DNA of 64,000 nt, from IMG/VR virus record IMGVR_UViG_2648501802_000002. One strand, written 5' to 3'. This document shows, piece by piece, positions 1-62,330 of the stretch. The stretch's first letter is position 1; the number at the start of each line of letters is the position of its first letter. Both the position numbers and the translations under genes were made by a program. Below the pieces are notes generated by a model. The model worked only from the letters and a program-made list of their open reading frames with translations, was not told the DNA's origin and made no database searches. This DNA comes from a virus (taxonomy: Duplodnaviria > Heunggongvirae > Uroviricota > Caudoviricetes).

Positions 1-234
1 ATGAAATCAAAAGACACCCTAAAGTGGTTCCCTGCGCAGCTTCCTGAAGTAAGAATTATCCTAGGGGATGCTGTAGTGGAAGTAGCAAAACAGGGAAGAC
101 CTATCAATACCAGAACATTGCTTGATTACATTGAAGGAAACATAAAGAAAAAATCATGGCTGGATAACAAAGAATTATTACAAACAGCGATATCAGTTCT
201 TAAAGACAACCAAAATTTAAATGGTAAAATGTAA
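1..234 (+). CDS. Hypothetical protein, 77 aa; may be the 3' part of a gene starting outside the window
   Basis: ORF begins at nt 1; no recognisable domain. Confidence 0.3.
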   Translation: MKSKDTLKWFPAQLPEVRIILGDAVVEVAKQGRPINTRTLLDYIEGNIKKKSWLDNKELLQTAISVLKDNQNLNGKM

Positions 235-550
235 TATAATAAACTTACTTTTTTATCATTTTTCCACTTTAACAACATTTTGCTCCACTTTTCCACGACC
301 AAACAACTTGAAATCTGGTTAAAATAACACGCAACACTATTCTTCTTCCTTGAGTCCGCCCGGAACTCGAAAAACAAACCGAGTTAAAGCTATTTTTCAC
401 AAAATCGATTTTGGGTCTCACCAAAATTACGGGGTTGCATACGCATTCGTTTATTTTCGAACGTGTACATACAAACATGCACAAAAATAATCAAAATTAT
501 TTTCTGAGATGCATTATGATATGAACACCAATTTCGTATAGAGTCTCACT

Positions 551-1141
551 ATGTCTCGAATTTTTGCTTACTGTCGGATATCAACGCTGGATCAGACCAC
601 CGAAAATCAACGCCGGGAAATCGAAAGTGTAGGTTTTAAAATCAAACCTCAGCAAATAATCGAAGAACACATTAGCGGCTCAGCAGCAACCAGTGAGCGT
701 CCTGGTTTTAACCGGTTGCTTGCTCGCCTGAAATGTGGTGATCAATTGATTGTGACAAAACTGGATCGCCTTGGTTGTAATGCAATGGATATCAGGAAAA
801 CAGTGGAACAACTGACCGAAACAGGTATCAGAGTGCATTGCTTAGCATTGGGGGGCATTGACCTGACCAGTCCAACAGGAAAAATGATGATGCAAGTAAT
901 TTCAGCAGTCGCTGAATTTGAACGAGACCTTTTACTTGAACGCACTCATTCCGGGATAGTAAGAGCCCGGGGCGCAGGGAAACGTTTTGGTCGACCACCT
1001 GTGTTAAATGAAGAACAGAAACAGGTGGTATTCGAACGGATTAAGTCAGGTGTAAGTATAAGTGCCATTGCCCGGGAATTCAAAACCTCGCGGCAAACCA
1101 TTTTAAGAGCCAAAGCAAAACTTCAGACACCTGACATATAA
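551..1141 (+). CDS. Serine recombinase (resolvase/DNA-invertase family)
   Basis: N-terminal catalytic motif [15 protein letters not shown] motif, C-terminal HTH (GRPP...SISAIAREF); sits beside tail-fibre genes like Gin/Pin/Cin invertases. Confidence 0.85.
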
Positions 1142-1368
1142 AAAATAATCTCGGTGTGAGATGCCTTACGTCTTCCAAGCCCCCTTCCTTGCCGTAAATG
1201 GAAAGATACATCTAATTATAGAATTTATATGTTTTACCCTACGGCAGTGCTGGCCATTCAATATCCTGTGCAGTTGACGTATCAACACGGTTCAGCAACA
1301 CCCGATACTTCTTCCAGGCTTCCCGCAACGAGGTTTCTTCCTCCGTTGCATATACAGCTCACCTTTTT

Positions 1369-1677
1369 TCACCCACGATTAACCAACAGCCAGACCAGCA
1401 GACACGCCACCACCGGCACAGCAAAATCCATCAGGCTTGCCACATCCCACGCGCGCGGATCAAAACCGCCCCACCACGGCATATTCATTCGCTTGCCATG
1501 CCCGAACATTTCAATCCAGCGATATTCTGCCTGGGTGTGTTCACGCGCAATGAAGAACGTACAACCGGCTATCGCCCCGTAAGCCCAGTTCCCGGTAAAA
1601 AGACCAATCAGTAGCTGCGCAGCCACAGCACAAAGCGCATGAAGGAAAGGTGTTATATCCATTTTCATCCTACCCAA
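1369..1677 (-). CDS. Hypothetical membrane protein, 102 aa
   Basis: Hydrophobic segments; the overlapping plus-strand ORF 1229..1582 looks non-coding. Confidence 0.35.
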   Translation of the reverse strand: MGRMKMDITPFLHALCAVAAQLLIGLFTGNWAYGAIAGCTFFIAREHTQAEYRWIEMFGHGKRMNMPWWGGFDPRAWDVASLMDFAVPVVACLLVWLLVNRG

Positions 1678-1698
1678 TAAAACGGGGCGCTCGGCCCC
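1670..1698 (-). terminator. Putative rho-independent terminator after tail-fibre operon
   Basis: GGGGC/GCCCC stem (1684-1698) followed on the minus strand by a U-rich tract. Confidence 0.45.
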
Positions 1699-1704
1699 TT
1701 AATA

Positions 1705-2745
1705 TTATTTAGACGCAAGCGCCGCCTCAATTGCAGATAATCTTTGTCTTAATTCTGCGTTTTCTTCTTCCAGTGCTGTTATTCTGTCGTCTGACTCTCT
1801 GGCTACCTGAACAAGCAAGCCAGTAACACCAGAATAATCTACTGTGTAATAACGTTCACCTTCTTCACCTTCCGATCCGCTTGCACCGTCCTGATATTTC
1901 ATTGCGGAACCTACAACTTCTGGGATTGCTTCCAGAGCTTCCTGTGCAATGACACCAGCATAGGGCATACCGTTTTCTTTAAGCGTGTATGTATAGCCGT
2001 TCATTTTACGGATGCGGTCGGTTGCATTATCGATCACCTGAATGTTGTCTTTCAGATCCCGGTCGGAATGCTGGTTAAATGCGGTGGCATGACATGCACC
2101 ATTAACGCTTAACATATAGGTGTTATCGGTATTTTTCTGCGCATAGAACATATAAGCGCCACCATCAACACCGACTTCATAAACAACAGGACGGCTGGTG
2201 TTGCCCCACAATTGAGCAGTAACACCAGCATAAGCGGTTCCCTGTGTGTTTAATGTCATGGTTGACCCATGATTGGCATATTTGATCTGTAATGTGTCGG
2301 TGTAATCAAATTTAATAAGCGCGCTACTTCCACGCTTGCTGTATGACATAAGGCAGTTACCCATTTTGAGGTATCCGCTGTCACCGGGAAAAATCATCGT
2401 ACCGCCATAAAGGTTGGTAAAGTCCCAGCAAATGTTTGTCCCGTTATCGTTCAGGTTAAGGCGCGCCATTGCGTTACCTGGACTGTCTATCCATTTTTTG
2501 AGGTATAGTTCGCAATACGCATCCTCAACACCTGCCGTCCTGTGAGTTGAGCGGAGTTTTCTCCCAAATATAGCTCCGCTAGTTGGCAATACCTGCTGAT
2601 ACCATGAAGCAGACCAGTCACCAACGATTTCATCTTTGCTGTCTACATATAATTTTGTTGCGTAGCTTCCTTGATCGTTTTTTAATTTGCTAACGTCGGA
2701 TTTTAGCGTTTTGATGTCATCAGGAATTACTGTCGATGTAGCCAT
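1705..2745 (-). CDS. Tail fibre/tailspike protein with C-terminal intramolecular chaperone (peptidase S74-like) domain
   Basis: C-terminus SDRDLKDNIQVIDNATDRIRKMNGYTYTLKENG...AGVIAQEALEAIPEVV matches the auto-processing chaperone domain of endosialidase/L-shaped tail fibres. Confidence 0.6.
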   Translation of the reverse strand: MATSTVIPDDIKTLKSDVSKLKNDQGSYATKLYVDSKDEIVGDWSASWYQQVLPTSGAIFGRKLRSTHRTAGVEDAYCELYLKKWIDSPGNAMARLNLNDNGTNICWDFTNLYGGTMIFPGDSGYLKMGNCLMSYSKRGSSALIKFDYTDTLQIKYANHGSTMTLNTQGTAYAGVTAQLWGNTSRPVVYEVGVDGGAYMFYAQKNTDNTYMLSVNGACHATAFNQHSDRDLKDNIQVIDNATDRIRKMNGYTYTLKENGMPYAGVIAQEALEAIPEVVGSAMKYQDGASGSEGEEGERYYTVDYSGVTGLLVQVARESDDRITALEEENAELRQRLSAIEAALASK

Positions 2746-2754
2746 TTTTCTTCC

Positions 2755-3036
2755 TCACATCCAGCCACGAAGTTGATGCTCAACAGCAACCACGTATTCA
2801 TCGAATAATGACGATATTTGCGAATCATTAATGATGCGCACGTTTACAAAATATCCGTCTTCCTTAACACATACCGGTTCGCCATCTTCAGTCAGTTCTC
2901 CGGTTTCTTTGTACACGTTACCTATCACGTCAATAAGAATATCATCCTGCATCGACTCGTCATCATAATAGCCAGTGCTATCCATAAAGGCCGAAAAGTC
3001 GGCCCTGTCGGCAAATTTGAGTGTTAAATCTTTCAT
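2755..3036 (-). CDS. Hypothetical protein, 93 aa, between the two tail-fibre genes
   Basis: ORF abuts stf; acidic; no family recognised. Confidence 0.35.
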   Translation of the reverse strand: MKDLTLKFADRADFSAFMDSTGYYDDESMQDDILIDVIGNVYKETGELTEDGEPVCVKEDGYFVNVRIINDSQISSLFDEYVVAVEHQLRGWM

Positions 3037-5411
3037 TAGATTGACTCCCCCACCTGAGCATCAGTCAATGCCTTGTGCCATATTCTGAAATTCCTGACAT
3101 GACCAAATAAATGACGTAACCCGGCTGTAGTCTGGCCTCCAATACGGATAATTGCGGTGTTCTGAATACAGGACCATGTGGTTTTTGTTTCGCTGGATAT
3201 ATGCCCGTTACTTACTGAGCACGTAGACTGCTCTGACTTTACACGCATCCCCATAACCATTTTTTCAAGCGATGCGTTTTCGTTTACCCGTCTGTTAGCT
3301 CCTCCAATATCGCAATAAGGAAATCCGTCGTAATCTGTTGAACGACCGAAGCCAAGAATAATAGCCGCTCCGGTTTGATGACCGCCGGTATCAAAAACAC
3401 GTGGCGCTGCATTTGGCGTTTTATACCAGTTCTTATGTACCTCACAAAGAACCGTAAAAGGAAGATTATAAAGATTATTCTTAATTGGAACTGTAACTAT
3501 ATCGCTTGCGCGGGTCGCCGCCGTCGCTCCTGATATAATAAAAGATGATACACAAGGCCCATCTTCTACTTGTGGGGTGGCCAGATAAATATAGTCACCA
3601 GATACGGTTGCCCCGCTCTGCTTAGGAGAATACTGTATCTGAGAGCCTATTTTTAGCTCCCCATCAATTGCCTGAATTGTTGCCTCTGCAAAAATCCATC
3701 CGGTAGCTTCGTCCTTTCTGACTCTCGCTGTAATCCTTGAGGCAGCACCGCCTGTCATATTAATTTCAAGCGTTTGTGTATCAATATACGCATCACCAAG
3801 AAAAGTTGTTGCGCTACCGTCATATTTATCAAACCGGATACGCAACCTTACCTGCAGTTCTGTTTTAAAACGACATGAGGTTGTCACGTGTTTATTATCG
3901 CCTGAGACATCAACTGACTTTGTTGCAGCAATTGATGCCATATTAATGGCTGAGGTTTGCCCAATCAGAGAATCGTTGCAGACAAACTTTCCATAGGTAA
4001 AACCAAAATTATCCGTCCCTGTTTCGGGCACATCCATATTTGAAGATCGCCCCCAACTGGCAGGGCTTTCCGAATTGAGCATGTAGTTTGTTCTTTGCCC
4101 CTCAATAAGCAGGCCATCACGTTCAAATCGTGGCTCGTCAATGGCAGCCTCTGTCAGCACACCAGATTTGTTAATATAGGTTGCTTTCGATGCACGTTTA
4201 AACTTAACAATCTTGTCGCCAGGCATCGTTATTTCATCGTCACCAATAACAATTTTTTTATATGACGGCGAAAAGCCCGTAATCATATCCAGCGAATCGT
4301 TAAATGGTATCCACACATCAGGCAGCGGCTGTAAGACATATTTATACGGCTCCGCAGCCTGGCTTGCGTACTCTCTGGCTGCATCTTCGCTTGCTTTAGC
4401 TGCCGTCTGGCTTGCTGCCGATGCTTTCGCTGAGTTCGCAGCCGCTGTTTCGCTCACCTTTGCGTTGGTTTCACTGGTTTTTGCTGCTTTTTGACTGTTA
4501 GCTGATGCAGTGGCAGAAGCAGCCGCCGCGCTTGCAGAACTGGCTGCGGCACTCTCGCTTTGAGCCGCTGCATCCTGACTGCTTTTCGCCGCAGTTTCAC
4601 TGGCTTTGGCATTCGTTTCACTGGTCTTCGCTGCCGTCTGGCTGGACTTTGCGTTAGTTTCACTCGTCTTCGCAGCTTTCTGGCTGTTAGCCGTAGCAGT
4701 TGCTGATCCAGCTGCTGAAGTCGCAGAACCGGCTGCCGCGCTCTCGCTTTGGGCTGCTGCAACCTGGCTGTTTTTTGCCGCAGTTTCACTGGCTTTGGCA
4801 TTCGTTTCGCTGGTCTTCGCTGCCGTCTGGCTGGACTTTGCGTTGGTTTCGCTCGTCTTTGCGGCTGTCTCGCTATTTTTCGCGTTGGTTTCTGATTTTT
4901 TAGCTGCTGTTGCGGAGTTTGCCGATGCAGTCTGCGAGGCCGCTGCCGCCTGTGCGCTGTTAGCTGCATTCGTTTCTGAGGTTTTCGCCGCGTTCTTCGA
5001 TGATGCCGCTGCAGTTTCGGATTTCTTTGCCGCCGCTGCGCTCTGAGAGGCGGCTTCAGCGTTGCGTGCCGCTTCTTCCACCATTTCCTCAAAACGACGC
5101 AATGCCTCCGGCATGACATCATCTTCCGTCATGGCACCGAGAAAATCATTCAGCGTACCTGGTCTGGAACCTTCATAGACGGTAATGGTCCCGGCATGTG
5201 AAGGCGGAAAACCTTCAACCAGCAGGGTGACGCTGTACTGACCATACTCAACATCCATGCTGTAACGCCCGGCTTCATCCGGATTTTCAGAGGCCACCGT
5301 GTTCACCAGTACCGTGGTGCTGTTACGCTTTGCCTTCAGTTGAATAGTGCAGTTCTGTATTGGTTTTCCCGCACCATCTTTCAGCACACCTGAGATTTTT
5401 ACTGCTGCCAT
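3036..5411 (-). CDS. stf: Side tail fibre protein (lambda Stf-like)
   Basis: N-terminus MAAVKISGVLKDGAGKPIQNCTIQLKAKRNSTTV... matches lambda Stf; likely ATG at 5411 with GGAG 5 nt upstream (ORF-track GTG at 5417). Confidence 0.85.
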   Translation of the reverse strand: MAAVKISGVLKDGAGKPIQNCTIQLKAKRNSTTVLVNTVASENPDEAGRYSMDVEYGQYSVTLLVEGFPPSHAGTITVYEGSRPGTLNDFLGAMTEDDVMPEALRRFEEMVEEAARNAEAASQSAAAAKKSETAAASSKNAAKTSETNAANSAQAAAASQTASANSATAAKKSETNAKNSETAAKTSETNAKSSQTAAKTSETNAKASETAAKNSQVAAAQSESAAAGSATSAAGSATATANSQKAAKTSETNAKSSQTAAKTSETNAKASETAAKSSQDAAAQSESAAASSASAAAASATASANSQKAAKTSETNAKVSETAAANSAKASAASQTAAKASEDAAREYASQAAEPYKYVLQPLPDVWIPFNDSLDMITGFSPSYKKIVIGDDEITMPGDKIVKFKRASKATYINKSGVLTEAAIDEPRFERDGLLIEGQRTNYMLNSESPASWGRSSNMDVPETGTDNFGFTYGKFVCNDSLIGQTSAINMASIAATKSVDVSGDNKHVTTSCRFKTELQVRLRIRFDKYDGSATTFLGDAYIDTQTLEINMTGGAASRITARVRKDEATGWIFAEATIQAIDGELKIGSQIQYSPKQSGATVSGDYIYLATPQVEDGPCVSSFIISGATAATRASDIVTVPIKNNLYNLPFTVLCEVHKNWYKTPNAAPRVFDTGGHQTGAAIILGFGRSTDYDGFPYCDIGGANRRVNENASLEKMVMGMRVKSEQSTCSVSNGHISSETKTTWSCIQNTAIIRIGGQTTAGLRHLFGHVRNFRIWHKALTDAQVGESI
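4430..5000 (-). repeat. In-frame tandem repeats inside stf (about 160-bp unit, about 3 copies) encoding Ala/Ser/Thr-rich AAKTSETNAKSSQTAAK... units
   Basis: Repeated protein blocks ANSQKAAKTSETNAKSSQTAAKTSETNAKASETAAK; boundaries approximate. Confidence 0.5.
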
Positions 5412-5420
5412 ATCCACTCC

Positions 5421-5450
5421 ACAAAAAAGCCCGCCTGAACCGGCGGGCTG
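5421..5450 (-). terminator. Rho-independent terminator between lom and stf
   Basis: Stem agcccgcc/ggcgggct followed by TTTTTT on the minus strand. Confidence 0.5.
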
Positions 5451-5475
5451 TCATAACACTGTGTTACCTGGCTAA

Positions 5476-6075
5476 TCAGAACTTATAACCGACACCCACG
5501 ATGAAACCGTCAGTGCGCCAGTCGCCACTGCCGGAGCCTTCATAAGCAATATCAATGGCCACGGATTCGGTCGGGTTAAACTGCACGCCAGCTCCCCACG
5601 CCAGAGACGTGTTGCTGTGGCGATCGTCATCACTTCCGGTCAGCACATCGTGCGTTTTCCCCTTGTTGTCAGTTACGCGGAGATAATCCCCGGAGAACGT
5701 CGAAACACGGCTGTAAGCCACACCTGCCATCGCATAAGCACTGAACCATTCATTCACGCGTACAGATGGCCCCGCCATCATGCTGAACCAGCGGTTACGC
5801 ACTGAATCTTCATGCCAGCGGGTATCGCTGTAATGCGTTTTTTGCTCATCTTTGGCATTGGCATAACTGAATGACGTCACCAGCCCCAGCGTGTCCGTAA
5901 ATTCATAACGGTATTTCACGTTAATGCCCTTCAGGTCATCACTGCCTGGCATATCAGTATGGGCCTGAAGATACCCGGCGCTTAGTGTGGACTGATGCTC
6001 TGCTGCGCTCGCTGGCGTACCAGCGGCAACCAGCCAGACTACTGCGGACAGAATAACAGCACATAATTTACGCAT
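5476..6075 (-). CDS. lom: Outer membrane protein Lom (Ail/Lom/OmpX family)
   Basis: Signal peptide plus beta-barrel OMP sequence closely matching lambda Lom; ends ...GVGYKF. Confidence 0.9.
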   Translation of the reverse strand: MRKLCAVILSAVVWLVAAGTPASAAEHQSTLSAGYLQAHTDMPGSDDLKGINVKYRYEFTDTLGLVTSFSYANAKDEQKTHYSDTRWHEDSVRNRWFSMMAGPSVRVNEWFSAYAMAGVAYSRVSTFSGDYLRVTDNKGKTHDVLTGSDDDRHSNTSLAWGAGVQFNPTESVAIDIAYEGSGSGDWRTDGFIVGVGYKF

Positions 6076-6142
6076 AATTACCTCTCGCTTTTCTGCAATA
6101 AAAAAGGCGTCATTTCTGACGCCCGTATTGGGGTTATAAAAT

Positions 6143-9100
6143 TCAGCTGATACTGATGCCTGCGGTGGCTTTCTTCATCACCACAACCAGCAAATCGCTG
6201 ATACTTGCTGTGGGATACCAGCCATTTACCCACCATGCTGATACCGAAAACTCCAGTGTCATTACGCCACTGCCTGCAGGCATATCAATAACACCCGTGT
6301 AAATCAGAGTATTATCCAGAGCCGTTCGGTTATAAATTTCAGCCCCGTTTTTCTTCACTATCAGGCGGCATGACGAATAAGTATCGCTATTCTCCCGTTC
6401 ATGTCTGGCACCGCTGAAAGCCACCGCCGGGATAACAATTTGCCGGTCAAACGGCTGATCGTCATAAACCCTGACGGTAATGGTCCCTGATGGCCACCGT
6501 TCCGGTGCACGGGAGTCACGGGGGAAAGCTTTGCCCACTGTTTTAACGAGATCGCCTTCAATCTGGTTCGCGGACAGTTTTCCCAGAACCCGGCAGTTCT
6601 CGTTAATCGTGACGTTGTTGAGCGTCCCGGAGTTCGCATTCACGTTACCGCTGATATCGGCATTTTTTGCCGTCAGCCGCCCGTCCGGTGTCAGGGAAAA
6701 TGCCGGAGGATTACCGCCGCTGGTAATGGTGGGAGCCGTCAGATATTTCAGGAACACTTCATTCATAAATATCTGATCGCCCTGACCAACAAACATCGGC
6801 TTTGTGTTGCCATTCGCAGGATTAATCATCGCAATCCTGTCCGCCGCCAGCAGCACCTGACTCTGCATACCGTCAGGGGTATTCTCAATACCGGCACCAA
6901 TACCCGCGATATAAAGGCGTCCGTCCTGCATCTGCTGCAGCTTCACAGCCCACATGCTGTTCAGGTTATTATTTGTATCAACCTGAACCTTCTGTATCTG
7001 CTGAATTGCCGCACTCTGGTCTTCCAGTTTCTTATTGACGGTCTGCGTGATTTCATTGCTGACATCCGTAATGGACGTCCTGATTTCAGCCAGGTCAGGC
7101 GCAAGCTGACCGTTATCAATCTGCGTCCACAGCTCCTGAGCCAGATGGCTTTTCCCTATCTCTCCTTTGAAAAAATCCAGATAGCCGGATGCATCATCAC
7201 TCGGCTGGCCAACAGCCTCCACAAATGCCGATTTGCCAACGGTGTTCACACTGCGGATGTAAAAATAATAATCATGGCCCGGTTTGATATTGATACTGGC
7301 GGCTATCCAGTACAGCGCCGTGCCAAGATAGCGGGCTGTGGTTTCAACCTGCCTGATATCGGTAATCCGCTTTTCCGAGAACCAGAACTCAAACTGTACC
7401 GTCGGGTCATAAATGGCAAGATGCGGCGTGGCGGTTATCTGAAAATAGCCCGGCGTCAGCTCAATCCTCGACGGTGCTGCCGGTGCGGCAATCCGGAACG
7501 ATACCGACGCCGCATCGCCCTGCTGCCCCCACGCATTTACCGCCCGGACTGTCAGCCTGTAGTTCCCCAGCGCCAGTTGCGTGAAGCGGTATGTGGTTTC
7601 CGTCGTCCGGGCCGTGCTGACCAGCCGCTCACTGCCGTCGTCCGCTGTTACGGTCAGACGGAGCAGGAAGCTCACGCCCTTCACCACCTTCGGTGTGTCC
7701 CATCGCGCCAGCACCTGATATTCCCCGCTGTCTGCAGTGACTTCTGCGGTCAGGTGCTGCACCGCTGGCGGCGTGACACCATTCACCGTGCCACTCTGTT
7801 CGCCGTCAAAGTGCGCCCCGTTATCCACGATGGCCTCTTTTTCCGGCACATGCTGCACGGCGGTGATGGCATACGTGCCGTCGTCGTTCTCACGGATACT
7901 CACGCAGCGGAACAGGCGCTGGCGCAGCGTCGGCAGCTTCAGCCCCCATACGCTGTATTCAGCAACACCCTCAGGAACACGGCTCACTTTTACCTTCACG
8001 CCGTCGTTGACGGACTGAACCTCCACGCTGACCGGATTGCCACTTCCGTCAACCAGGCTTATCAGCGTGGTACCGGAGGATGGCAGCGTGATTTCACGGT
8101 CGAGCGTCAGCGTCCGGGTCTGGCTGTTCACCGCCAGCACACGACCACCGGTGCTGATACCGGCATAGTCATCATCGCAGATTTCAATAACATCGCCCGG
8201 TACATGGCGAAGCCCTTCTGCGCCGACGCTGAAATCCACGGTCTGCGTCTCCAGCAGCTCCGTTTTAATCAGCCACAGCCCGGCGCGGTGTGCCTGCCCC
8301 CGGCTGGTACAGCCAAAGGCATCCATCTTCGTAACATTACGACCGTAACGGGCAATGGCCTGCGTATCTTCAACAAGCTCTGTCGCCGTCTCCCAGCCGT
8401 TGTCCGGGTCAATCCAGTTCACCTCAACGGCATTATGGCGGTCTTTCAGGGCGCTGAAGCTGTAGCGGAACGGCGCGCCATCATCCGGCATCACCACATT
8501 ACTGCGGTTATAGGTCCACGCCTTATCCGACGGTCGGTCCTGCACGAACGTCAGCGTCTGCCCGTTCCATACCGGCATACAGCGCATCGCCGAGCAGAAA
8601 TCACTGAGAACGTCCCACGCCTTGCGCTGTGTGGTCAGGTACGCATTACAGGTGATGCGCGGCTCCGTGCCGCCAAAGCCGTCCGGCACTGACTGGTCGC
8701 AGTACTGGCCGATGACATACAGCGCCCATTTGTCCACATCCGCCGCACCAAGACGTTTCCCCATGCCGTAGCGCGGATGGGTCAGCATATCCCACAGACA
8801 CCAGGCCATGTTGTTGCTGTATGCTGGCTTAAACGTTCCGTCCCAGATACCGCTGTATTGTCGCGTCTGCGGGTTATAGTTCGACGGCACCTGCAGAATG
8901 CGCCCGCGAAGATGATAATTACGACTCACCTGCTGGCTGCCGAACTGCTCCGAGTCCACCTGTACGCCGACCAGTGCCGTGTTCGGGTAGCACTGTTTCA
9001 CATCGATGATTTCGGTGTATGACGACCAGAGCGTTTTGTTCTGCAGCTGGTCTGTGGTGCTGTCCGGCGTCATCCTGCGCATCCGGATATTAAACGGGCG

Positions 9101-9409
9101 CGGCGGCAGGTTATCCACCACCACCGAGGCCAGATACTGCGAGGTGGTTTTGCCTTTAATGGTGATGTCTTTTTCCGTCACCCAGCCACCGTTACGCTGT
9201 ATCTGAACCAGCAGGCGGACTTCCGACGGATTCCGGTCCCCCTTTGAGGTGGTTTCCACCAGTGCCTGCACACCGAAGGTAAAGCGCAGACGGTCGATGT
9301 TTGCAGACGTGATGGTCCGGGTAATCGGCGTGTCGTACTTCACTTCCGTACCCAGCACCGTCTCGGAGCCGGAGGATTCAAATCCCTCCGGCGGTGGCTG
9401 TCGTAGCAA
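6143..9409 (-). pseudogene. J: Tail tip host-specificity protein J, 5'-truncated (about first 45 codons missing)
   Basis: Matches lambda J from [21 protein letters not shown] onward; upstream codons diverge and hit an in-frame stop at 9425-9427; ORF-track start is a TTG. Confidence 0.8.
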
Positions 9410-9513
9410 ATTCTGCGACCGGGTTTAGCAGCCTGAATGATTGTGCGGACAGCCGCAGATATCCGATATTGCGGTATTTTTGTGTCCGTAAAACCGCGTT
9501 ACGCCCAAATTAT

Positions 9514-9590
9514 GGTGGGGCGTGATGGGGAGGCTTCGGCCTGCTGGTTTCACAATCGCCAGTCTGCTAACCCCGTCACGTCCTGCCACC
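9514..9590 (+). ncRNA. c4: Candidate c4-type antisense RNA (immI)
   Basis: 77-nt element closed by GGTGG...CCACC; contains cacaatc and ctgctaac complementary to gattgtg/gtttagcag copies upstream (9423-9445) and at the icd RBS (9592-9632). Confidence 0.45.
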
Positions 9591-9640
9591 TGTTTAGCAG
9601 CGGGTAGCAGGTTGTTAAACCTGATTGTGAGGCCGTAACT

Positions 9641-9862
9641 ATGGTTAATGCCAATCCTTGCGCACGCCCAGAATTCATCTGGCGTTTCTATTCCTGTAAA
9701 AAACACCACTATCACTTCGTTATCGCAGCAACTGAAGACGAAGCACGCTCTCAATTGCCTGATGGCCCCTGCATTTTTACTGCCCGTTTTTCAACTAACT
9801 CGCGCAATTCACTTAGTTACTGGAACCTCCCCTTCTCTGCCGACGTTCAGGGGGGTTTATGA
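9641..9862 (+). CDS. icd: Icd-like small protein upstream of antirepressor
   Basis: 73-aa ORF overlapping ant start (ATGA), preceded by c4-like targets; layout as P1 immI. Confidence 0.55.
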   Translation: MVNANPCARPEFIWRFYSCKKHHYHFVIAATEDEARSQLPDGPCIFTARFSTNSRNSLSYWNLPFSADVQGGL

Positions 9863-11250
9863 AAAAACCTCTCGTCACCCGTAATGAAATAGCCGAAGCG
9901 ATCGCCCTGCATACAACCTGTATGCCGACACGGGAGATCCCCGGCGCAATTGCCAACTATTTCATGATAACCAGGCGTTTTTATACCCGAACAGATAAGG
10001 CTGTGATCAACAAGCTACTGATAGCCGAGATCAGGGATTATTTGATTGAACAAGGACGTCTACGTTACGCAACAGTGGCAGCAGAAATGAGAAAGGAGGC
10101 ACATAGAATGACCGGTAATAATTTAAATGTTGAAAAAACAGTACCTGTTACGTCAGCTACGCCAGCACCAGCCGTGAATGTCATCCCCAACACCGGAGAC
10201 ACAATCGACAGCCAAACATTGTTGAAGATGGTCAATGAGGCACGTAAGTTATGTGGAGAACCAGAGGTTAGAAACAATAAATTCATCGAAAAAATACTCG
10301 ATGAACTTGAAGGTGAATTTTACACAAAAAGTGCAAAATCCCATGGCACAAGGGCCGGGCGCTCTTTTGAGGTCATAACCATGACCTATAAACAAGCCCT
10401 GCGAGTCGCCGCACGCGAATCAAAAGCGGTCCGCCGTTCGCTACATACCATGATTCAGTCATTGGAACCTATAAATGTAGAAAATCAGCCTGATGAAATT
10501 CCCGTTCTGGAATGGCAGGGAGTACGCGTCGTGACAACCGAGACTCTTGCTAGAGGGTATGGCACTACACCTATTCGTATTCAGCAGAACTACAATCGCA
10601 ATGAAGAACGATTTGTAGAGGGTAAACACTTCTTTAAAATCAAAGGAGATGAGATAAAAAGTTTGCGACTATCTTTTAGCGAGTTGCAAATTTCCCCCAA
10701 GACCAGATCCTTAATACTCTGGACCGAACGCGGAGCGGCACGCATGTCTAAGATCGTAGACACAGAGCAAGCGTGGGCATTCTTTGAAAAACTGGAAGAC
10801 AGCTACTTCCGGCAAAAAGAACAGCAACCGGTCACAATCCCCCAAACATTACCAGAAGCTCTACGCCTGGCTGCCGAGTTGGCAGAGCAGAAAATGCAGT
10901 TGGAACAACAGCTGGTGGCCGCAGCCCCTAAAGTAGATTTTGCCGACCGGGTATCAGTGGCTAATGGAATCCTGATCGGGAACTTTGCAAAGGTCGTTGG
11001 ACTTAAGCAAAACGCCCTTTTCTCATGGTTGCGCCAGAACGGCATTCTCATGGCTTTTGGTGCGCGCAAAAACGTACCGCGCCAGCAGTACATTAACGCC
11101 GGGTATTTCACGGTGAAAGAAGTGGTGCTGGATGATGAAAATGGCTACCAGATACGGCTGACGCCCCAATTAACGGGTAAAGGCCAGCAGTGGTTAACTC
11201 GCAAGCTACTTGATGCTGGTTTGTTAAAACCAGTGGCGTCCTTGTCTTAA
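9859..11250 (+). CDS. ant: Antirepressor (ORF6N domain plus KilA-C domain)
   Basis: Central IPVLEWQGVRVVTTETLARGYG... and C-terminal PKVDFADRVSVANGILIGNFAKVVGLKQN...GYFTVKEV motifs. Confidence 0.85.
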   Translation: MKKPLVTRNEIAEAIALHTTCMPTREIPGAIANYFMITRRFYTRTDKAVINKLLIAEIRDYLIEQGRLRYATVAAEMRKEAHRMTGNNLNVEKTVPVTSATPAPAVNVIPNTGDTIDSQTLLKMVNEARKLCGEPEVRNNKFIEKILDELEGEFYTKSAKSHGTRAGRSFEVITMTYKQALRVAARESKAVRRSLHTMIQSLEPINVENQPDEIPVLEWQGVRVVTTETLARGYGTTPIRIQQNYNRNEERFVEGKHFFKIKGDEIKSLRLSFSELQISPKTRSLILWTERGAARMSKIVDTEQAWAFFEKLEDSYFRQKEQQPVTIPQTLPEALRLAAELAEQKMQLEQQLVAAAPKVDFADRVSVANGILIGNFAKVVGLKQNALFSWLRQNGILMAFGARKNVPRQQYINAGYFTVKEVVLDDENGYQIRLTPQLTGKGQQWLTRKLLDAGLLKPVASLS

Positions 11251-11803: not shown

Positions 11804-11820
11804 TTTGCTCTAATAAATTT
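11804..11820 (+). promoter_or_regulatory. C1 operator-like site upstream of kilA
   Basis: tttgctctaataaattt, 16/17 to P1 consensus ATTGCTCTAATAAATTT. Confidence 0.6.
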
Positions 11821-13665: not shown

Positions 13666-14181
13666 ATGAAAAAAGTAGTTTTAACGGCCCTTCTGGCATG
13701 TGCCTTGGGGGTTGCTGGGACTGCCTCCGCATATCAGCACACACTCTCCTTAGACTTTGCCCAAGGAAGCGCAACGGTTAAAGGCGGAGATATAAAAGAT
13801 CCAAAAGGCGTGAATATTAAATATCGCTACGAAATGGATTCTACGTGGGGTGGATTAGCTTCGGTCACTTACGAAAAGTCAAACACAAACCTATGGAATG
13901 CCGCCAAAGCCAAGGTTGAGTATGCCTCATTTACTTTTGGTCCGTCATACAGATTCAATGAATTAATGAGTGCATACGGCTTGGTGGGTTTAAGCCATGC
14001 GGATGCAACAGCAAAACTGAATGGACAGTCATATGCTGGCTTTGGAACCGATTTTGCTTATGGACTTGGGCTTCAATTTAACCCATCTCCGCAGTTTGCA
14101 GTTGATCTCTCGTATGAACGTTCTAAACCAGGTGATCTAAGCAATAGCATTTGGATGCTTGGTGTCGGTTACCGATTTTAA
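13666..14181 (+). CDS. Ail/Lom/OmpX-family outer membrane protein
   Basis: Signal peptide MKKVVLTALLACALGVAGTASA; beta-barrel ending GVGYRF. Confidence 0.85.
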   Translation: MKKVVLTALLACALGVAGTASAYQHTLSLDFAQGSATVKGGDIKDPKGVNIKYRYEMDSTWGGLASVTYEKSNTNLWNAAKAKVEYASFTFGPSYRFNELMSAYGLVGLSHADATAKLNGQSYAGFGTDFAYGLGLQFNPSPQFAVDLSYERSKPGDLSNSIWMLGVGYRF

Positions 14182-14492: not shown

Positions 14493-14674
14493 TACACCCG
14501 CTGCGGTGTGCTTGGGGCTATCAGCTTCAGGTATTACCCGAAAAGCAGATAGAAGAAAGCCCCAGTAAACATTATGCGTCCCGCACAACGCTTAACATTA
14601 ACCGGGGCCATACCTATGCTTAGCGTACTTAGATTAATCCTCTCCTCTGTCAAGGAGCAAGGAATTTTTTACTG

Positions 14675-15271
14675 CTATGCCGCCTTTCCAGTTATGGATT
14701 CTGCGACAAGAACAACCCCATGCTTACTTCGATCCGGATGTTCACTCCATATCTCGGATTCAGGAATACTTTCCCCGTCATAGCAAACACGTTCGCCATC
14801 AAATGGGTAATACTGAGCAGTATCGGTGTCCAGGATAAAAACTTTTAGTTCGGAAGAACGACGAGCGATGTGCTGCCAAAGAGCTTTTCCACCTTCGTAT
14901 TGCTCATTATCACTGAGCAAAACAACACCAGCTTTTGAGGCTACGGTTTCGTAAACAAAAGTGGCTAAACCGACATCCCGGACGATTCCATCAACCACGA
15001 TACCTTCAATCTGGGCAACATCGCTATCCTCCCAGAACTTCCTTACCAGTACGCCTTCAAGCTGCGGGCGACGTTGAAGTTCAAGAGTAGCGACAACCTT
15101 ATGCCGCATATCACCATCGATAACAGAAGGCGCAGCCTCTATTACAGCTGCAAATGGGGTTTTGGAATCCCATATAACCTGGTAAAGCACACCCTGGATG
15201 GTAACGCCGTCCAGGATCGAAAATCGACGAGCGACAGTACCCGGGGAGTACGACATTGGAATCACAGCCAT
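14675..15271 (-). CDS. Hypothetical protein
   Basis: ATG at 15271 with AAGGGGGA RBS; no family recognised. Confidence 0.45.
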   Translation of the reverse strand: MAVIPMSYSPGTVARRFSILDGVTIQGVLYQVIWDSKTPFAAVIEAAPSVIDGDMRHKVVATLELQRRPQLEGVLVRKFWEDSDVAQIEGIVVDGIVRDVGLATFVYETVASKAGVVLLSDNEQYEGGKALWQHIARRSSELKVFILDTDTAQYYPFDGERVCYDGESIPESEIWSEHPDRSKHGVVLVAESITGKAA

Positions 15272-33118: not shown

Positions 33119-33194
33119 GATGGTGTAGCTCAGCGGTTAGAGCGGTTGACTGTTAATCAACGGGTCGATGGTTCAAATCCATCCACCATCGCCA
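33119..33194 (+). tRNA. tRNA-Asn (anticodon GTT)
   Basis: Cloverleaf: acceptor GATGGTG/CACCATC, anticodon loop CTGTTAA, T-loop TTCAAAT, 3' CCA. Confidence 0.9.
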
Positions 33195-33196
33195 AT

Positions 33197-33272
33197 GCCG
33201 GTTTAGCTCAGTTGGTAGAGCGCCTGCCTTGTAAGCAGGATGTCAGCGGTTCGAGTCCGTTAATCGGCACCA
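33197..33272 (+). tRNA. tRNA-Thr (anticodon TGT)
   Basis: Acceptor GCCGGTT, D-arm GCTCAGTTGGTAGAGC, anticodon loop CTTGTAA, T-loop TTCGAGT, 3' CCA. Confidence 0.9.
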
Positions 33273-33833: not shown

Positions 33834-34096
33834 TCGCAACGTTAAGAGTATTTGGCTAATTAAGCGAATGCCGGAAGCAGAACCGGATCACCAAATGCGT
33901 ACAGGCGTCATCGCCGCTCAGTCAGCCAAATGCTCTTACCATTGCGGTGAATGCGGCTAAGCGCACGCGGGGAAATGGTTATATCAGTCCATTCATTTCT
34001 CCTTGTTTCCCCGTCCACGGTGGATAACCAGCCAAAGGACACCGGGAGGCACCCGGCACCGCAACCTTATTTCCCAACCAGTAATGAGGTTAATAA

Positions 34097-34522
34097 ATGC
34101 TCGGCATTCTCAAAAAGAAATTCCGCAAAGCGGCTGGCGGAGTCAAGAAGATGGAAAACCGTGATGCGGTGGAAGCGACCGTCTGGGGCGCATATTCCAT
34201 TGCATACTCTGACGGCACCTGCGATGCGAAAGAAATTGCAGTATTGGAAAAAACCATTGCAGCACTTCCTGCCTTTGCGCCCTTCTCCGGTGAAATTGCC
34301 CAGATGAGCGCCAATATTCGCGCTCAATATGAAGCCTCGCCGCGCCGAGCTAATGCCCAGGCTTTACGTGAGCTGGCTGATGTGTCCGGGACTAATGATG
34401 CGGTAGATGTTCTGTGCCTATGCATTGATATTGCTGACCAGGATGGCATTGGGGCTGAAGAGCAGGAGCAATTGAAGAAAATTGCCCAGGCTCTTCAATT
34501 GCCACTGGAACAGTATGTCTGA
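34097..34522 (+). CDS. tciA: TerB-like protein (P1 TciA-like)
   Basis: 141 aa with TerB-like repeats; GAGG RBS. Confidence 0.55.
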   Translation: MLGILKKKFRKAAGGVKKMENRDAVEATVWGAYSIAYSDGTCDAKEIAVLEKTIAALPAFAPFSGEIAQMSANIRAQYEASPRRANAQALRELADVSGTNDAVDVLCLCIDIADQDGIGAEEQEQLKKIAQALQLPLEQYV

Positions 34523-34796: not shown

Positions 34797-34872
34797 GGCC
34801 CTTTAGCTCAGTGGTTAGAGCTGGCGACTCATAATCGCACGGTCACCGGTTCAAGTCCGGTAGGGGCCACCA
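34797..34872 (+). tRNA. tRNA-Ile2 (anticodon CAT, ileX-like)
   Basis: Near-identical architecture to E. coli tRNA-Ile2 (GGCCC(C)TTAGCTCAGTGGTTAGAGC...CTCATAA...), 3' CCA. Confidence 0.85.
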
Positions 34873-57088: not shown

Positions 57089-58282
57089 GTGACCTGGGAC
57101 GATCACAAGAAGAATTTTGCTCGCCTGGCGCGAGATGGTGGTTACACCATCGCACAGTATGCCGCCGAGTTTAATCTTAACCCTAATACCGCACGTCGTT
57201 ATCTCCGTGCCTTCAAAGAAGACACCAGGACTGCGGACAGCCGCAAGCCAAATAAGCCAGTCAGGAAGCCACTAAAAGGCATGATCATTGATCACTCTAA
57301 TGATCAACATGCAGGTGATCATATTGCGGCTGAAATAGCGGAAAAACAGAGAGTTAATGCCGTTGTCAGTGCCGCAGTCGAGAATGCGAAGCGCCAAAAT
57401 AAGCGCATAAATGATCGTTCAGATGATCATGACGTGATCACCCGCGCCCACCGGACCTTACGTGATCGCCTGGAACGCGACACCCTGGATGATGATGGTG
57501 AACGCTTTGAATTCGAAGCTGGCGATTACCTGATAGATAACGTTGAAGCGCGGAAGGCCGCGCGCGCTATGTTGCGTCGGTCCGGGGCCGATGTTCTGGA
57601 AACCACTCTTCTTGAAAAGTCTCTTTCTCATCTCCTTATGCTGGAGAACGCCAGGGATACGTGTATTCGTCTGGTGCAGGAAATGCGCGATCAGCAAAAA
57701 GACGATGATGAAGGGACTCCGCCTGAATATCGTATCGCGAGCATGCTAAACAGCTGTTCCGCGCAGATAAGCAGCCTGATCAACACCATTTACAGCATCC
57801 GGAATAACTATCGAAAAGAAAGCCGGGAGGCGGAAAAGCACGCTTTATCTATGGGGCAAGCTGGCATTGTTAAGCTGGCATACGAACGAAAGCGTGAAAA
57901 TAACTGGTCAGTGCTGGAAGCAGCTGAATTCATCGAGGCGCATGGCGGAAAAGTGCCGCCCCTGATGCTGGAGCAAATCAAAGCCGATCTGCGTGCTCCT
58001 AAGACCAATACCGATGATGAGGAAAGGCAAACAGCCGTCGGTGGCCCTTCTCTTGAAGATCTGGACAAAGTTGCGCGAGAACGGGCTGCCAACCGCCGCG
58101 CCGATGCCGCATTGTGGATTGAGCAGCGTAGGGAAGAAATCGCCGATATCGTTGATACAGGCGGTTATGGAGATGTTGATACTGAAGGTGTATCAAACGA
58201 CCCATGGCTGGAACAAGACCTGGACGAAGACGAGGAGGAAGACGAAGAAGTTACCCGCAAGCTATACGGGGATGATGATTAA
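57089..58282 (+). CDS. pacA: Terminase small subunit PacA
   Basis: 397 aa matching P1 PacA; GTG start with GAAAGGAAG RBS. Confidence 0.85.
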
Positions 58283-59766
58283 TGGCCAGAAGTTGCGTAA
58301 CGGATCCACGTTGGCGCGAGCTGGTGGCGCTATATCGTTATGACTGGATTGCTGCCGCTGATGTTTTGTTCGGCAAAACACCTACCTGGCAGCAGGATCT
58401 GATTATTGAGTCTGTGCAGGAACAGGGTAGCAAGACATCTGTTTCGTCTGGTCACGGTACCGGGAAATCAGACATGACTTCTATCATGATCATGTTGTTC
58501 ATAATCATGTATCCCGGTGCCCGCGCCATTATCGTTGCGAACAAAATTCAGCAGGTAATGACCGGTATATTCAAGTACATCAAGATAAACTGGGCTACTG
58601 CCACCAGCCGTTTTCCATGGCTTGCTGATTATTTTGTTCTGACAGAAACCGCTTTCTATGAGGTTACTGGTAAAGGTGTATGGACTGTAGTACCGAAGGG
58701 CTTTCGTCTGGGAAGTGAAGAAGCTCTCGCCGGTGAACACGCAGATCATCTTCTGTATATTATCGATGAAGCCTCCGGTGTCAGTGATAGAGCTTTCGGT
58801 ATCATCACTGGTGCTCTTACCGGACAGGATAACCGCATCTTATTACTGTCACAGCCTACACGCCCAAGCGGCTATTTCTACGATACTCACCATAAACTGG
58901 CCAAGCGTCCTGGTAACCCTGATGGCGTTTATACGGCGATCACGCTTAACAGTGAGGAATCACCGCTGGTAACGCCAGCATTTATCAAAATGAAGCTGGC
59001 GGAGTACGGCGGGCGTGATAACCCTATGTACATGATTAAGGTACGCGGACTATTCCCTAAATCACAGGATGGCTTCCTTCTTGGACGTGATGAGGTTGAA
59101 CGTGCGACGCGGCGGAAAGTCAAGATTGCCAAAGGATGGGGCTGGCTTGCATGTGTGGACGTTGCTGGTGGTACAGGACGGGATAAGTCCGTTATCAATA
59201 TCATGATGGTGTCCGGCCAGCGAAATAAACGCCGTGTAATCAACTATCGAATGCTGGAATACACAGACGTTACAGAAACGCAGCTTGCCGCCAAAATTTT
59301 CGCAGAATGTAATCCTGAGCGATTCCCAAATATCACCATAGCGATAGACGGCGATGGGCTGGGTAAAGCAACGGCGGATCTGATGTACGAGTATTATGGT
59401 ATTACCGTACAGCGCATACGCTGGGGTAAAAAGATGCATAGCCGTGAAGATAAGAGCCTGTACTTTGATAAACGTGCTTATGCCAACGTTCAAGCCGCAG
59501 AGGCCGTAAAATCTGGTCGTATGAGACTGGATAAGGGTAATGAAACTATTGAGGAAGCGTCGAAAATCCCTGTAGGGATTAACTCCGCAGGTCAATGGAA
59601 GGTGATGAGTAAGGAGGATATGAAGAAAAAACTCAACCTGCACTCACCAGACCATTGGGATACATATTGTTTCGCTATGCTGGCGGATTATGTTCCCCAG
59701 GACGAAGTGCTTAGCGTCGAAGACGAAGCGCAGGTTGATGAAGCTCTGGCATGGCTTAATGAATGA
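58282..59766 (+). CDS. pacB: Terminase large subunit PacB
   Basis: 494 aa; Walker A-like [10 protein letters not shown]; overlaps pacA stop. Confidence 0.9.
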
Positions 59767-59769
59767 ATA

Positions 59770-59786
59770 CTTGCTCTAATAAATTG
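59770..59786 (+). promoter_or_regulatory. C1 operator-like site after pacB
   Basis: cttgctctaataaattg, 15/17. Confidence 0.5.
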
Positions 59787-59917
59787 TGTTTTTTAACTGC
59801 CGATGTTACATTGAGCCTGACCTCTTGCGCCTTGAGGCATTTTCGGTTTATGCTTATCAGGCACCTCAGTAAAACGGGTGCCGGGATTGAGACCCCGGAT
59901 AATGCAAAAGGCGACAC

Positions 59918-59941
59918 AGACGCCAAAAGCGTCTTTTTTTG
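59918..59941 (+). terminator. Rho-independent terminator after pacB
   Basis: agacgc-caaaa-gcgtct hairpin plus T7. Confidence 0.7.
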
Positions 59942-59974
59942 TGTCATGCCATCGCACAGCCATACGTAGCGTTT

Positions 59975-60075
59975 AGCTCAGAGATCAATGGTAGTGCTGG
60001 CTGGGCTGCCGAAAGGCAGGCCGGTTCCCTTTTGCGCCGGTAGTCTCAACCCAGTCAGTGCTACCGCCATTGAGA
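59975..60075 (+). ncRNA. Possible second c4-type antisense RNA (divergent sequence)
   Basis: Long-range pairing 59985-59999 with 60055-60071; caatgg complementary to ccattg at the icd-2 RBS. Confidence 0.3.
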
Positions 60076-60125
60076 TTGAGACCTCACGCGGTAGCTCCTT
60101 AAATTAGCAAAAGGAGGCTGCCATT

Positions 60126-60347
60126 GTGGCTACTATCCCTACCCCAGCTCATCCTGAATTTATCTGGCGCTTTTACTCCTGCCAAAAACGTCACTATCAC
60201 TTCGTTATTGCACCGACAGAAGATGAGGCACGTTCTCAGCTTCCGGATGCTCCCTGTATTTTCTCTGCCCGCTTTTCTACCGATTCGCGCAATTCTCTCA
60301 GTTACTGGTGCCTCCCTGTTAACGCTTCTGCTCAGGAGGGACTATGA
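60126..60347 (+). CDS. icd: Icd-like small protein, copy 2
   Basis: 73 aa, paralogue of 9641..9862; GTG start after AAAGGAGG. Confidence 0.5.
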   Translation: MATIPTPAHPEFIWRFYSCQKRHYHFVIAPTEDEARSQLPDAPCIFSARFSTDSRNSLSYWCLPVNASAQEGL

Positions 60348-61446
60348 GAACGTCATTAGTCACCCGTGAAGAGATGATCGAGGCAATTGAACAGCACACT
60401 GCCTGTATCAGTACCAGGGATATACCGGGCGTTATTGCCAACTACTTCATGATCACCAAACAACTTTACCGGAGAAAGGACAAATACGCGGTTCACCGCA
60501 TTCTGCTAACCGATATCCGTGAATACCTGCTCGAACAGGGTCATCTGAATTACGCAACCGTCGCAGCCGAAGCACGCAAGGAGGCACACAGAATGAAAGC
60601 AACTAACGTTAAATCAGAAAAAATTTATGCACCTTCAGTTCAGGAATCGGAACTGGTGGTTGTTCAGAATCAGCCGGATGAAATTCCCGTTCTGGAATGG
60701 CAGGGAGTACGTGTCGTGACAACCGAAACTCTTGCTAGAGGGTATGGTGTCGATGAAGCCAATATTCGCAACAATTTGTCTCGCAACCTTGACCGCTTTG
60801 AAGAAGGTAAGCATTACTTTCTTCTAACTGGTTTAAAATTAAGAGAATTTAAGAACAGAGTAACCGGAAGTTACTCTGTTGGTAAGAACGCCAGAAGCCT
60901 TACACTCTGGACAGAGCGCGGCGCTGCACGCATGTCTAAGATCGTGGACACAAATGAAGCATGGGCATTCTTTGAAAAACTGGAAGACAGCTACTTCCGG
61001 CAAAAAGAACAGCAACCGGTTGCAATCCCCCAGACGCTTCCAGAAGCTCTGCGCCTGGCTGCCGAACTGGCTGAACAAAAGAACAGAAAGCCCACCAGCT
61101 AAATCAGCAGCTGGTGGCCGCCGCTCCTAAAGTCGATTTTGCCGACCGGGTATCAGTAGCTAAAGGGATCCTGATTGGGAATTTTGCAAAGGTTGTTGGA
61201 CTTAAGCAAAACGCGCTGTTTGCCTGGTTACGGGAGAACGGCATCCTGATAGCGTCCGGTGGACGTAAAAATGTGCCGTTCCAGCAGTACATCAATGCGG
61301 GGTATTTCACGGTGAAAGAAGTGGTGCTGGATGATGAAGATGGCTACCAGATACGGTTGACGCCTCAATTAACGGGTAAAGGCCAGCAGTGGTTGACGCG
61401 TAAACTGCTCGATGCTGGCTTGTTAAAACCGGTGGCGGCTGAATAA
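60344..61446 (+). pseudogene. ant: Antirepressor copy 2, split by a frameshifting indel between ORF6N and KilA-C parts
   Basis: ORFs 60344..61102 and 61114..61446; net +11 nt palindromic segment at about 61085-61115 relative to copy 1. Confidence 0.55.
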
Positions 61447-61478: not shown

Positions 61479-62330
61479 TTATTGCGCGCTTTCGGGGTTG
61501 TCGTTTACTGGCTGCCCCTTCTTGGTTTTACGGCTGCGCGTAACTGATGCGGCTGACTTAACCTTTTTCTCTTCGCGAGTGATGGCAATTTGTTTTTTTA
61601 CATTTTCAATATCTGCCAGGCGATATATTTTTGCTTGCGGCCAGCGGTCGCAGATGATCGGTTCTATAGAGTCATAAAGGCTAAATTTTGCTTTCTCGAA
61701 TTCACCGTTGATGATGATTCCATCACGGAGAGTTTCATCGCAGATAAACACGCCACACAGCGGTACATGGTAACTAACTGATTTACCATCATTGTAGTTA
61801 GGGCTACTGGAGATGTAGTGGACGCGCAGCATTGTTTCGCTAAAGCCGTGTACACGCATACGGAATTTTTCATCCTCCGGGTACTGCCTCATTAGCTCTT
61901 TTGTTGCTTCCAGGTTCTCTATGTATTTCGCACTGTGCTCATTGATCCCCGCGCTTTTTTGGATGCGAATGTCCTTATCAATCAGATGAATAATGCGGCC
62001 AGCGGTCATGTTGACGCTGTTCACAGCTTCTGTCTGATAAGTTGTAACCTTGCGCACACCGCGAAGGATGTTAGGCACTGGATATAAAATAGTCTTTGGG
62101 ATATTGAGGTCTGGGTACTGTTCCAGTTCCCGCGCCATTAAAGTCCATTTATCAATTTCAGCCTGAATGCTGTCAGTTTCTTTGAACGGTAGAACGACAA
62201 CCGGGCGTACAGGACGACCGTCGCTGGCTGTATCAACGTGTTGGGCGCGTGCAACAGCTTTTTTTAGAAAGAGATCCCTGAAGCTGACGAACTCCTGGTA
62301 CAGTTGTTCGCCGTAGACATAATTTATCAT
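61479..62330 (-). CDS. c1: C1 repressor
   Basis: 283 aa matching P1 C1 (MINYVYGEQLYQEFVSFRDLFLKKAVARAQ...). Confidence 0.9.
   Translation of the reverse strand: MINYVYGEQLYQEFVSFRDLFLKKAVARAQHVDTASDGRPVRPVVVLPFKETDSIQAEIDKWTLMARELEQYPDLNIPKTILYPVPNILRGVRKVTTYQTEAVNSVNMTAGRIIHLIDKDIRIQKSAGINEHSAKYIENLEATKELMRQYPEDEKFRMRVHGFSETMLRVHYISSSPNYNDGKSVSYHVPLCGVFICDETLRDGIIINGEFEKAKFSLYDSIEPIICDRWPQAKIYRLADIENVKKQIAITREEKKVKSAASVTRSRKTKKGQPVNDNPESAQ

Follow-up and report, generated by a model that had tools for sequence, protein, structure and literature searches.

The region between 9400 and 11250 of the 64,000-nucleotide stretch of DNA analysed here (the window) is almost certainly an immI operon of the phage P7 allele, consisting of leader, c4, icd and ant, which is carried by a P1-family phage-plasmid and would operate by the P1/P7-type mechanism. 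Judged by its sequence, the stretch singled out in the preliminary description is the already known P7 c4 antisense RNA switch and is ordinary as such; this textbook RNA was rightly recognised from the raw sequence and by itself matters little. The presence of a second, different module in the same element and a link to the Salmonella RNA IsrK add modest interest, and the missing promoter at an abrupt join is an unusual point too.

The direct repeats from which the element was recognised, and their complements in the intervening sequence, all lie at the coordinates first given for them. The nonamer GTTTAGCAG is present at 9423-9431 and 9592-9600, with no third copy on either strand of the whole 64 kb, and each copy is followed downstream by GATTGTG (9439-9445 and 9623-9629). 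Between the repeats are the complements CACAATC (9551-9557) and CTGCTAAC (9564-9571). The second repeat had been described as 9592-9629 and as including the icd Shine-Dalgarno (SD) sequence GAGG. The overlap is there, but GAGG occupies 9629-9632 (sharing its first base with the end of the second GATTGTG) and stands 8 nt 5' of the ATG at 9641, and the interval had been clipped by a trivial 3 nt. Could such repeats arise by chance? The search with the Rfam C4 model (RF01695) that had been proposed as a check matches 9508-9593 end to end with 69.6 bits, against a gathering score of 45 bits, and an E-value of 1.7e-11 for the whole window. Chance repeats are rejected on the strength of this E-value, of a 9-mer that has no further copies in 64 kb and of the identity to P7 described below.

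In a three-way alignment, 9400-9665 is the same as phage P7 at every base, through leader, a1, b1, c4, a2, b2 and the start of icd. Transferring the misc_RNA coordinates of the P7 GenBank record through the alignment places the c4 RNA at 9514-9590 on the plus strand, which is the 77-nt intervening RNA that had been postulated. The target boxes, all on the plus strand, were placed by transfer of the P1 GenBank annotation in the same way. Upstream of c4 are a1 (TTAGCAG, 9425-9431) and b1 (GATTGTG, 9439-9445), complementary in their P7-allele form to the a' and b' segments of c4 respectively. Downstream, on the icd-ant mRNA, are a2 (TTAGCAG, 9594-9600) and b2 (GATTGTGA(G), 9623-9632), the latter overlapping the SD. 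Within c4, b' (CACAAUC, 9551-9557) is the loop of the second hairpin and a' (CUGCUAA, 9564-9570) lies in a single-stranded junction; the RNA ends with CCACC.

The predicted fold of the 77-nt core has an energy of -44.9 kcal/mol (z = -5.7 relative to shuffled sequences), and the minimum free energy structure is a long closing stem with two hairpins in which a' and b' are both unpaired. The predicted folds thus have the tRNA-like C4 form, namely a closing stem, two hairpins and a 3' CCACC or CCGCC tail. When seven homologues were compared, compensatory (double) changes were found in 12 of the 27 stem pairs. Both a' and b' are complementary to a2 and b2 downstream on the same strand, and b2 overlaps the ribosome-binding site of the first ORF: positions 9623-9631 can form a 9-bp duplex with the b' loop (-10.0 kcal/mol) that takes in the first bases of the SD. 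The a1 box (9425-9431) pairs with a' at -7.9 kcal/mol according to RNAduplex. It is of note that the sequence GUAGCAGG at about 9604-9611 pairs with a' about as strongly as a2 does.

Comparison with phage P1 identifies the allele. The P1 immI region (AF234172/3) has the same architecture, and its annotated a1, b1, c4, a2, b2, icd and ant1/ant2 map one-to-one onto the window, with 96.5% identity over 9400-10442; identity to P7 over 9397-10254 is 97.7%. In each of a1, b1, b', a', a2 and b2, exactly two bases differ between P1 and the window. Because these are the two-base changes per box that separate P1 from P7, the window carries the P7 allele, and such compensatory box differences are the known, classical basis of P1/P7 heteroimmunity. 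The preliminary description mentioned neither the exact P7 allele, nor the missing native promoters and C1 operator, nor the IsrK-like nature of the leader in which the upstream boxes lie.

Two genes follow c4 on the plus strand, in the order c4-icd-ant that is shared with P7 immI (AF503408; Citron and Schuster 1990). The first, icd (9641-9862), encodes a 73-residue cell-division inhibitor that is 99% identical to Icd of both P1 and P7 and differs from P7 Icd at one residue. The second, ant (9859-11250), encodes an antirepressor of 463 residues with ORF6N and KilAC domains, and its start overlaps the icd stop codon (ATGA, 9859-9862), as expected of a translationally coupled gene. The N-terminal ~195 residues resemble P1 Ant1; beyond about 195 codons the gene diverges from that of P7 and is the ORF6N plus KilAC variant found in SJ46-type plasmids. 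Together with the above-gathering C4 match and the P7-identical sequence, the 99% identity of Icd bears out the P1/P7 immI logic that had been proposed, in which the targets flank c4 and overlap the icd ribosome-binding site. The surroundings are equally typical of the family: 9397-64000 is P1-family (Punavirus) sequence with kilA-like, repL, par, tail and head genes, dmt, ban, pacAB and c1, and the window contains 13 matches to the C1 operator where 0.37 are expected by chance, none of them upstream of this first module.

In P1 and P7, c4 is excised from the operon transcript and its pairing with b2 hides the icd ribosome-binding site and stops icd translation; since ant expression needs icd translation, no antirepressor is made under c4 (PMC12197685, PMC6906374). 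The c4 products of both phages were demonstrated to be RNAs by Citron and Schuster in 1990 (cited in PMC7313666 and PMC12197685). By its identity with P7, the window's operon transcript would likewise yield a processed 77-nt tRNA-like c4 RNA; a product of about 77 nt with its 5' end made by RNase P, conferring immunity in vivo, is what the P7 sequence predicts. The exposed b' loop and a' junction would then pair with b2 and a2 on the mRNA of the same operon. With b2 covering the SD, icd would go untranslated, no antirepressor would be made (given the ATGA overlap and polarity), and C1 repression of the prophage would persist. Specificity would lie in the 7-9 nt boxes, and a P7-type c4 should leave operons of the P1 type and of the second module's type unsilenced.

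The control region that drives this operon in P7 is not in the window. All matches to P1/P7-family sequences begin at 9397-9400, where the immI leader has its 5' end; this is a breakpoint between P1-family phage-plasmid and lambdoid prophage. Positions 1-9399 are lambdoid prophage of the E. coli chromosome, with 99.98% identity to ST2747 (NZ_CP007394.1), and contain ydfK, pinR, tail-fibre genes, lom and J in that order; the only two mismatches to ST2747, at 9383 and 9397, are within 17 nt of the break. The window's J (6143-9409, minus strand) is 5'-truncated and encodes 1,088 residues, about the first 70 codons being absent, whereas J of ST2747 (1,159 residues) is intact and runs on into tail-assembly genes. 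At most 1-3 nt at the break are common to both parents. The break is about 6 nt downstream of the P51b -10 hexamer as annotated in P1 and coincides exactly with the start of the alignment to position 1 of the Rfam isrK model, and so corresponds to the 5' end of the leader transcript. Promoters P51a and P51b and the C1 operator Op51 are all absent from the module, and where P7 has Op51 and these promoters, from which c4 would be transcribed together with its target, the window has truncated J in antisense 5' of 9397. A simple consensus scan found no sigma-70-like promoter in 8900-9900 (read-through from farther upstream is possible), and a scan of the window for C1 operators found none near 9400, the nearest being at 11804. 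As written, then, the first module would probably be transcriptionally orphaned and produce neither c4 nor Ant, barring an artefactual junction.

Is the join real? We lean towards an artefact of assembly, scaffolding or concatenation, which we hold to be somewhat likelier than a genuine illegitimate fusion; if so, the true module has the P7 upstream region (Op51, P51a and P51b), the orphaned-module argument is void, and the first module is a normal, functional P7-type immI. The junction was absent from 5,426 complete E. coli genomes and from the phage and plasmid collections searched, and the exact junction 30-mer was absent from GTDB representative genomes, IMG/VR and JGI metagenomes, that is, from every collection in which it was sought. 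Nor was any record found of the window's hybrid Ant, frameshifted second Ant or truncated J proteins. Each side has close relatives of its own, the ST2747 chromosome with its intact J on the left and P1-like plasmids of about 98% identity on the right. J occurs in multiple copies in E. coli (a median of three places per genome) and is a typical place for contigs to break, and the 1-3 nt or fewer of shared sequence and the clustering of the sole two ST2747 mismatches next to the break also favour an artefact. Position 1 of the window is exactly the A of the ydfK start codon in the ST2747 annotation, which would be unlikely for a random cut and hints that the left segment may have been excised at a gene boundary, as a cut-out fragment. 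Against an artefact, there is no run of Ns or other scaffold mark, and P1-like elements do occasionally reside in chromosomes (21 chromosomal places, plus one match in a complete E. coli genome).

The alternative, that a real illegitimate recombination event fused a P1-like element to a chromosomal lambdoid prophage within J and left a silent, promoterless P7-type immI with the second module as the sole working antirepressor control, we judge to be somewhat less probable. The sequence is continuous, a near-blunt break with 1-3 shared nucleotides is typical of illegitimate recombination, and the second module retains a C1 operator. Such a fusion would, however, have no counterpart in the 5,426 complete E. 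coli genomes or in any of the contig collections, its placement exactly at a transcript 5' end would be a coincidence, and the frameshift in the second ant would leave an element devoid of any intact, expressed antirepressor.

The second module (59770-61446) is complete. It is flanked by pacB (58282-59766) on one side and c1 (61479-62330, minus strand) on the other; all its own features are on the plus strand. A C1 operator-like site with 15 of 17 consensus matches (59770-59786) is directly upstream. The leader (59861-59939) belongs to the isrK family (58.2 bits against a gathering score of 50) and contains a1 (TTGAGAC, 59887-59893) and b1 (GCAAAAGG, 59904-59911), after which a terminator scan called an intrinsic terminator with a T-run (59918-59934). 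There follows a second C4-type antisense RNA of about 79 nt (approximately 59990-60068; Rfam C4 match at 59984-60071, 75 bits) with a predicted fold of -46.4 kcal/mol (z = -5.7), b' being CCUUUUGC (60028-60035) and a' GUCUCAA (60043-60049). On the mRNA, a2 (TTGAGAC) is at 60076-60082 and b2 (GCAAAAGG, 60107-60114) overlaps the SD AAGGAGG (60110-60116). The module's genes span 60126-61446. An icd-like gene with a GTG start (60126-60347), whose product is 74% identical to Icd of the first module, precedes an ant that is split into an ORF6N part (60344-61102) and a KilAC part (61114-61446); relative to phage JL22, a 10-bp deletion (GCAGCTTCTG) at 61081 causes the frameshift. A partial tandem copy of a2 (ATTGAG ATTGAGAC, 60070-60082) precedes a2 proper and could be a second, weaker docking site for a'.

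As a sequence, this module has been seen before. Complete copies occur in JL22 (98% identity), RCS47 (94%) and vB_EcoM-673R5; D6 has the leader, C4 and the start of icd. In PLSDB, 326 plasmids have at least 80% of the leader-C4-icd part (59767-60347). Venturini et al. (2019) recorded an insertion of 'two short hypothetical orfs and ant' in the pacB-c1 interval (PMC6906374), and the pacB-c1 module of P1-like plasmids such as RCS47, JL22 and pTZ20_1P, published as ORFs only, is its counterpart. We found no published description of its RNA components. What is added here is the C4-type RNA, the IsrK-type leader, the cognate boxes and the distinct predicted specificity; in the window its ant is frameshifted. 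Phage D6 itself has two modules of the c4-icd type (D6 locus 1501-1828 and D6 20806-21157), one 95.7% identical to the second module over the leader, C4 and icd start, the other 86.7% identical to the first. On this sequence evidence, dual modules extend beyond Punavirus.

The preliminary description had pointed out the second copy, noted that its sequences differ from those of the first, and suggested two immunity specificities. The difference is evident in the loops, CACAAUC and CUGCUAA in the first module against CCUUUUGC and GUCUCAA in the second. The second module's boxes show no relation to those of P7, and only weak cross-pairing is predicted. Five alleles can be recognised, those of P1, of P7 and the first module, of the second module together with JL22 and D6, of RCS47, and of 673R5, and across them changes in the loops go together with changes in the boxes on either side of c4, G-U-compatible ones included. 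In a matrix of RNAduplex energies, the summed cognate loop-target values come out best in every case, by about 4-10 kcal/mol; for the two modules of the window, each with a' and b' loops that match its own boxes, the predicted cognate duplexes beat the cross pairs by 4-8 kcal/mol. Non-cognate background reaches -14.5 kcal/mol as against -18.5 to -20.0 for cognate pairs. Orthogonality of the two modules is predicted from these short-duplex energies, which support the presence of two immunity specificities in one element. Cross-talk between the modules was considered and finds no support in the predicted duplexes. By extension from the first module, the second would work in the same manner through an orthogonal RNA-target pair. 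P1-like phage-plasmids, which are key carriers of resistance genes, would often have two orthogonal c4/antirepressor switches, and the natural specificity alleles, with their three-way compensatory changes, offer a ready-made orthogonal antisense toolkit.

What, then, is the leader for? The duplicate a1 and b1 targets are present in the first module's leader (9400-9481, plus strand) and are identical to those of P7. The leader begins with a hairpin (9400-9419), a1 lies in the loop of a second hairpin, and b1 is followed by a terminator-like hairpin and UAUUUUU. It matches the Rfam isrK model (RF01394) over its full length with 43.7 bits (E = 2e-8); this is under the gathering score of 50, which the leader of the second module passes. 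The hairpin and UAUUUUU align with the terminator of the isrK model, and the terminator scan that gave a clear call in the second module made none here. A match to the Rfam c4-a1b1 model (RF03163) at 9387-9439 scores 41.4 bits against a gathering score of 46.7, solely because the first 13 model positions fall to the left of the junction. Tandem isrK and C4 matches were found also in Stx2 phages, phiP27, Ss-VASD and APSE phages. Rfam places isrK outside the C4 clan.

IsrK was characterised in the prophage Gifsy-1. In the region 34076-34329 (minus strand) of NC_010392.1 there are matches to isrK (79 bits), c4-a1b1 (48.1 bits, above gathering) and C4 (69 bits); isrK overlaps c4-a1b1, and b2 overlaps the GGAGG of the antirepressor gene anrP. 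When numbered from the isrK 5' end, all nucleotides named by Hershko-Shalev et al. (2016; PMC4825925) match. The ORF from nt 107 has exactly 45 codons and starts at AUGGUGGGG, the 5' end of C4, and the published compensatory pairs G28-C162 and G31-C159 (PMC4825925) are a1:a' base pairs. In that study orf45 was found to be conserved as nucleotide sequence and not as protein, a processed RNA, STnc1160, comes from orf45, and IsrK supplied in trans raises anrP translation about 140-fold; neither c4 nor P1 is mentioned (PMC4825925). The sequence comparison identifies the Salmonella IsrK locus as a c4-type module and shows that 'orf45' coincides with its C4 RNA. It has in common with the window an isrK and c4-a1b1 leader that pairs with the a' region of C4, the C4 RNA itself and a b2 over the antirepressor SD. 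It differs in that there is no icd and the antirepressor gene comes directly next, that the C4 region was read as a 45-codon ORF, that the host element is a lambdoid prophage not controlled by C1, and that the published account of IsrK makes it an activator and does not refer to c4.

From these alignments, homology between the c4 leader and IsrK is essentially shown, and in both modules the a1/b1 leader would be an IsrK-type RNA able to pair with the c4 loops. The conservation of orf45 at the RNA level, STnc1160 and the ~140-fold activation of anrP suggest that the a1/b1 leader is a decoy for C4. We therefore propose, tentatively and as something a little short of probable, that the leaders of both modules belong to the IsrK RNA family and act as short, terminated decoys that titrate the C4 loops and so turn the antirepressor on; for the P1-like modules the decoy function is argued by analogy with Gifsy-1. 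If true, c4 immunity modules would be switches built of three RNAs (a decoy leader, the antisense RNA and the mRNA), the a1 and b1 boxes of P1 and P7, which have long lacked an explanation, would gain a function, and 'orf45' of Gifsy-1 would really be a C4 RNA. The link would also join two bodies of work between which there is no cross-citation, and it suggests a testable role for a1 and b1. Rouil et al. (2020; PMC7313666) noted the co-occurrence of isrK and C4 RNAs in APSE phages and treated them as unrelated; beyond this remark, we found no publication that equates IsrK with the c4 leader. We regard the link as a lead, not as a result on the flagged interval.

The leader structures also bear on another possible mode of action. 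The CI RNA of P4 and the CA RNA of N15 are homologous processed tRNA-like immunity RNAs, which we take to be in the same Rfam clan as C4 (CL00128), and they act by causing premature transcription termination on targets in the leader. If c4 worked likewise, it would pair with the nascent leader and terminate transcription, and not block translation. Both leaders do consist of a1 and b1 followed by a terminator-like hairpin, and homology between the P4 cI region and the C4 part of the second module can be detected. We nevertheless think it unlikely that termination is the mechanism here. The P4 and N15 targets are in the untranslated leader, clear of the ribosome-binding site, whereas b2 is on the SD in every allele compared (P1, P7 and the first module, the second module, RCS47, 673R5 and Gifsy-1), and for P7, whose sequence is identical, the mechanism in the literature is a block of translation. 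Nor are the two mechanisms exclusive, since translational block in P1 leads to downstream polarity.

That the region encodes a small regulatory protein, as the labels 'c4 CDS', 'transcriptional regulator C4' and 'ash family protein' in X15639, RCS47 and PGAP plasmid records imply and as the overlapping ORF (9437-9607, plus strand, 56 residues) would allow, has virtually no chance of being correct in view of the strong covariance-model match, the allele differences that are compensatory in RNA (12 of 27 stem pairs, and the loop and target boxes) and not protein-conservative, and the demonstration that P1 and P7 c4 are RNAs (Citron and Schuster 1990, in PMC7313666 and PMC12197685). A protein-coding c4/ash ORF is rejected because of the covariation at the RNA level. 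In many P1-like plasmids PGAP calls an 'ash family protein' ORF over the homologues of the second module's C4-type RNA (59984-60071), and RCS47 labels c4 'transcriptional regulator C4'. Such protein calls over an RNA gene are likely spurious; annotation pipelines miss these RNAs and call 'ash family' or 'transcriptional regulator C4' ORFs instead.

Other RNAs were seen in the P1-like part of the window. The three tRNA genes (33119-33191, 33197-33269 and 34797-34869) are usual for P1-family phages. At 14506-14679 there is a match to the Rfam sok antitoxin model (62.3 bits against a gathering score of 59), which adjoins a short hok-like ORF and a gene of the Ail/Lom family (13666-14181).
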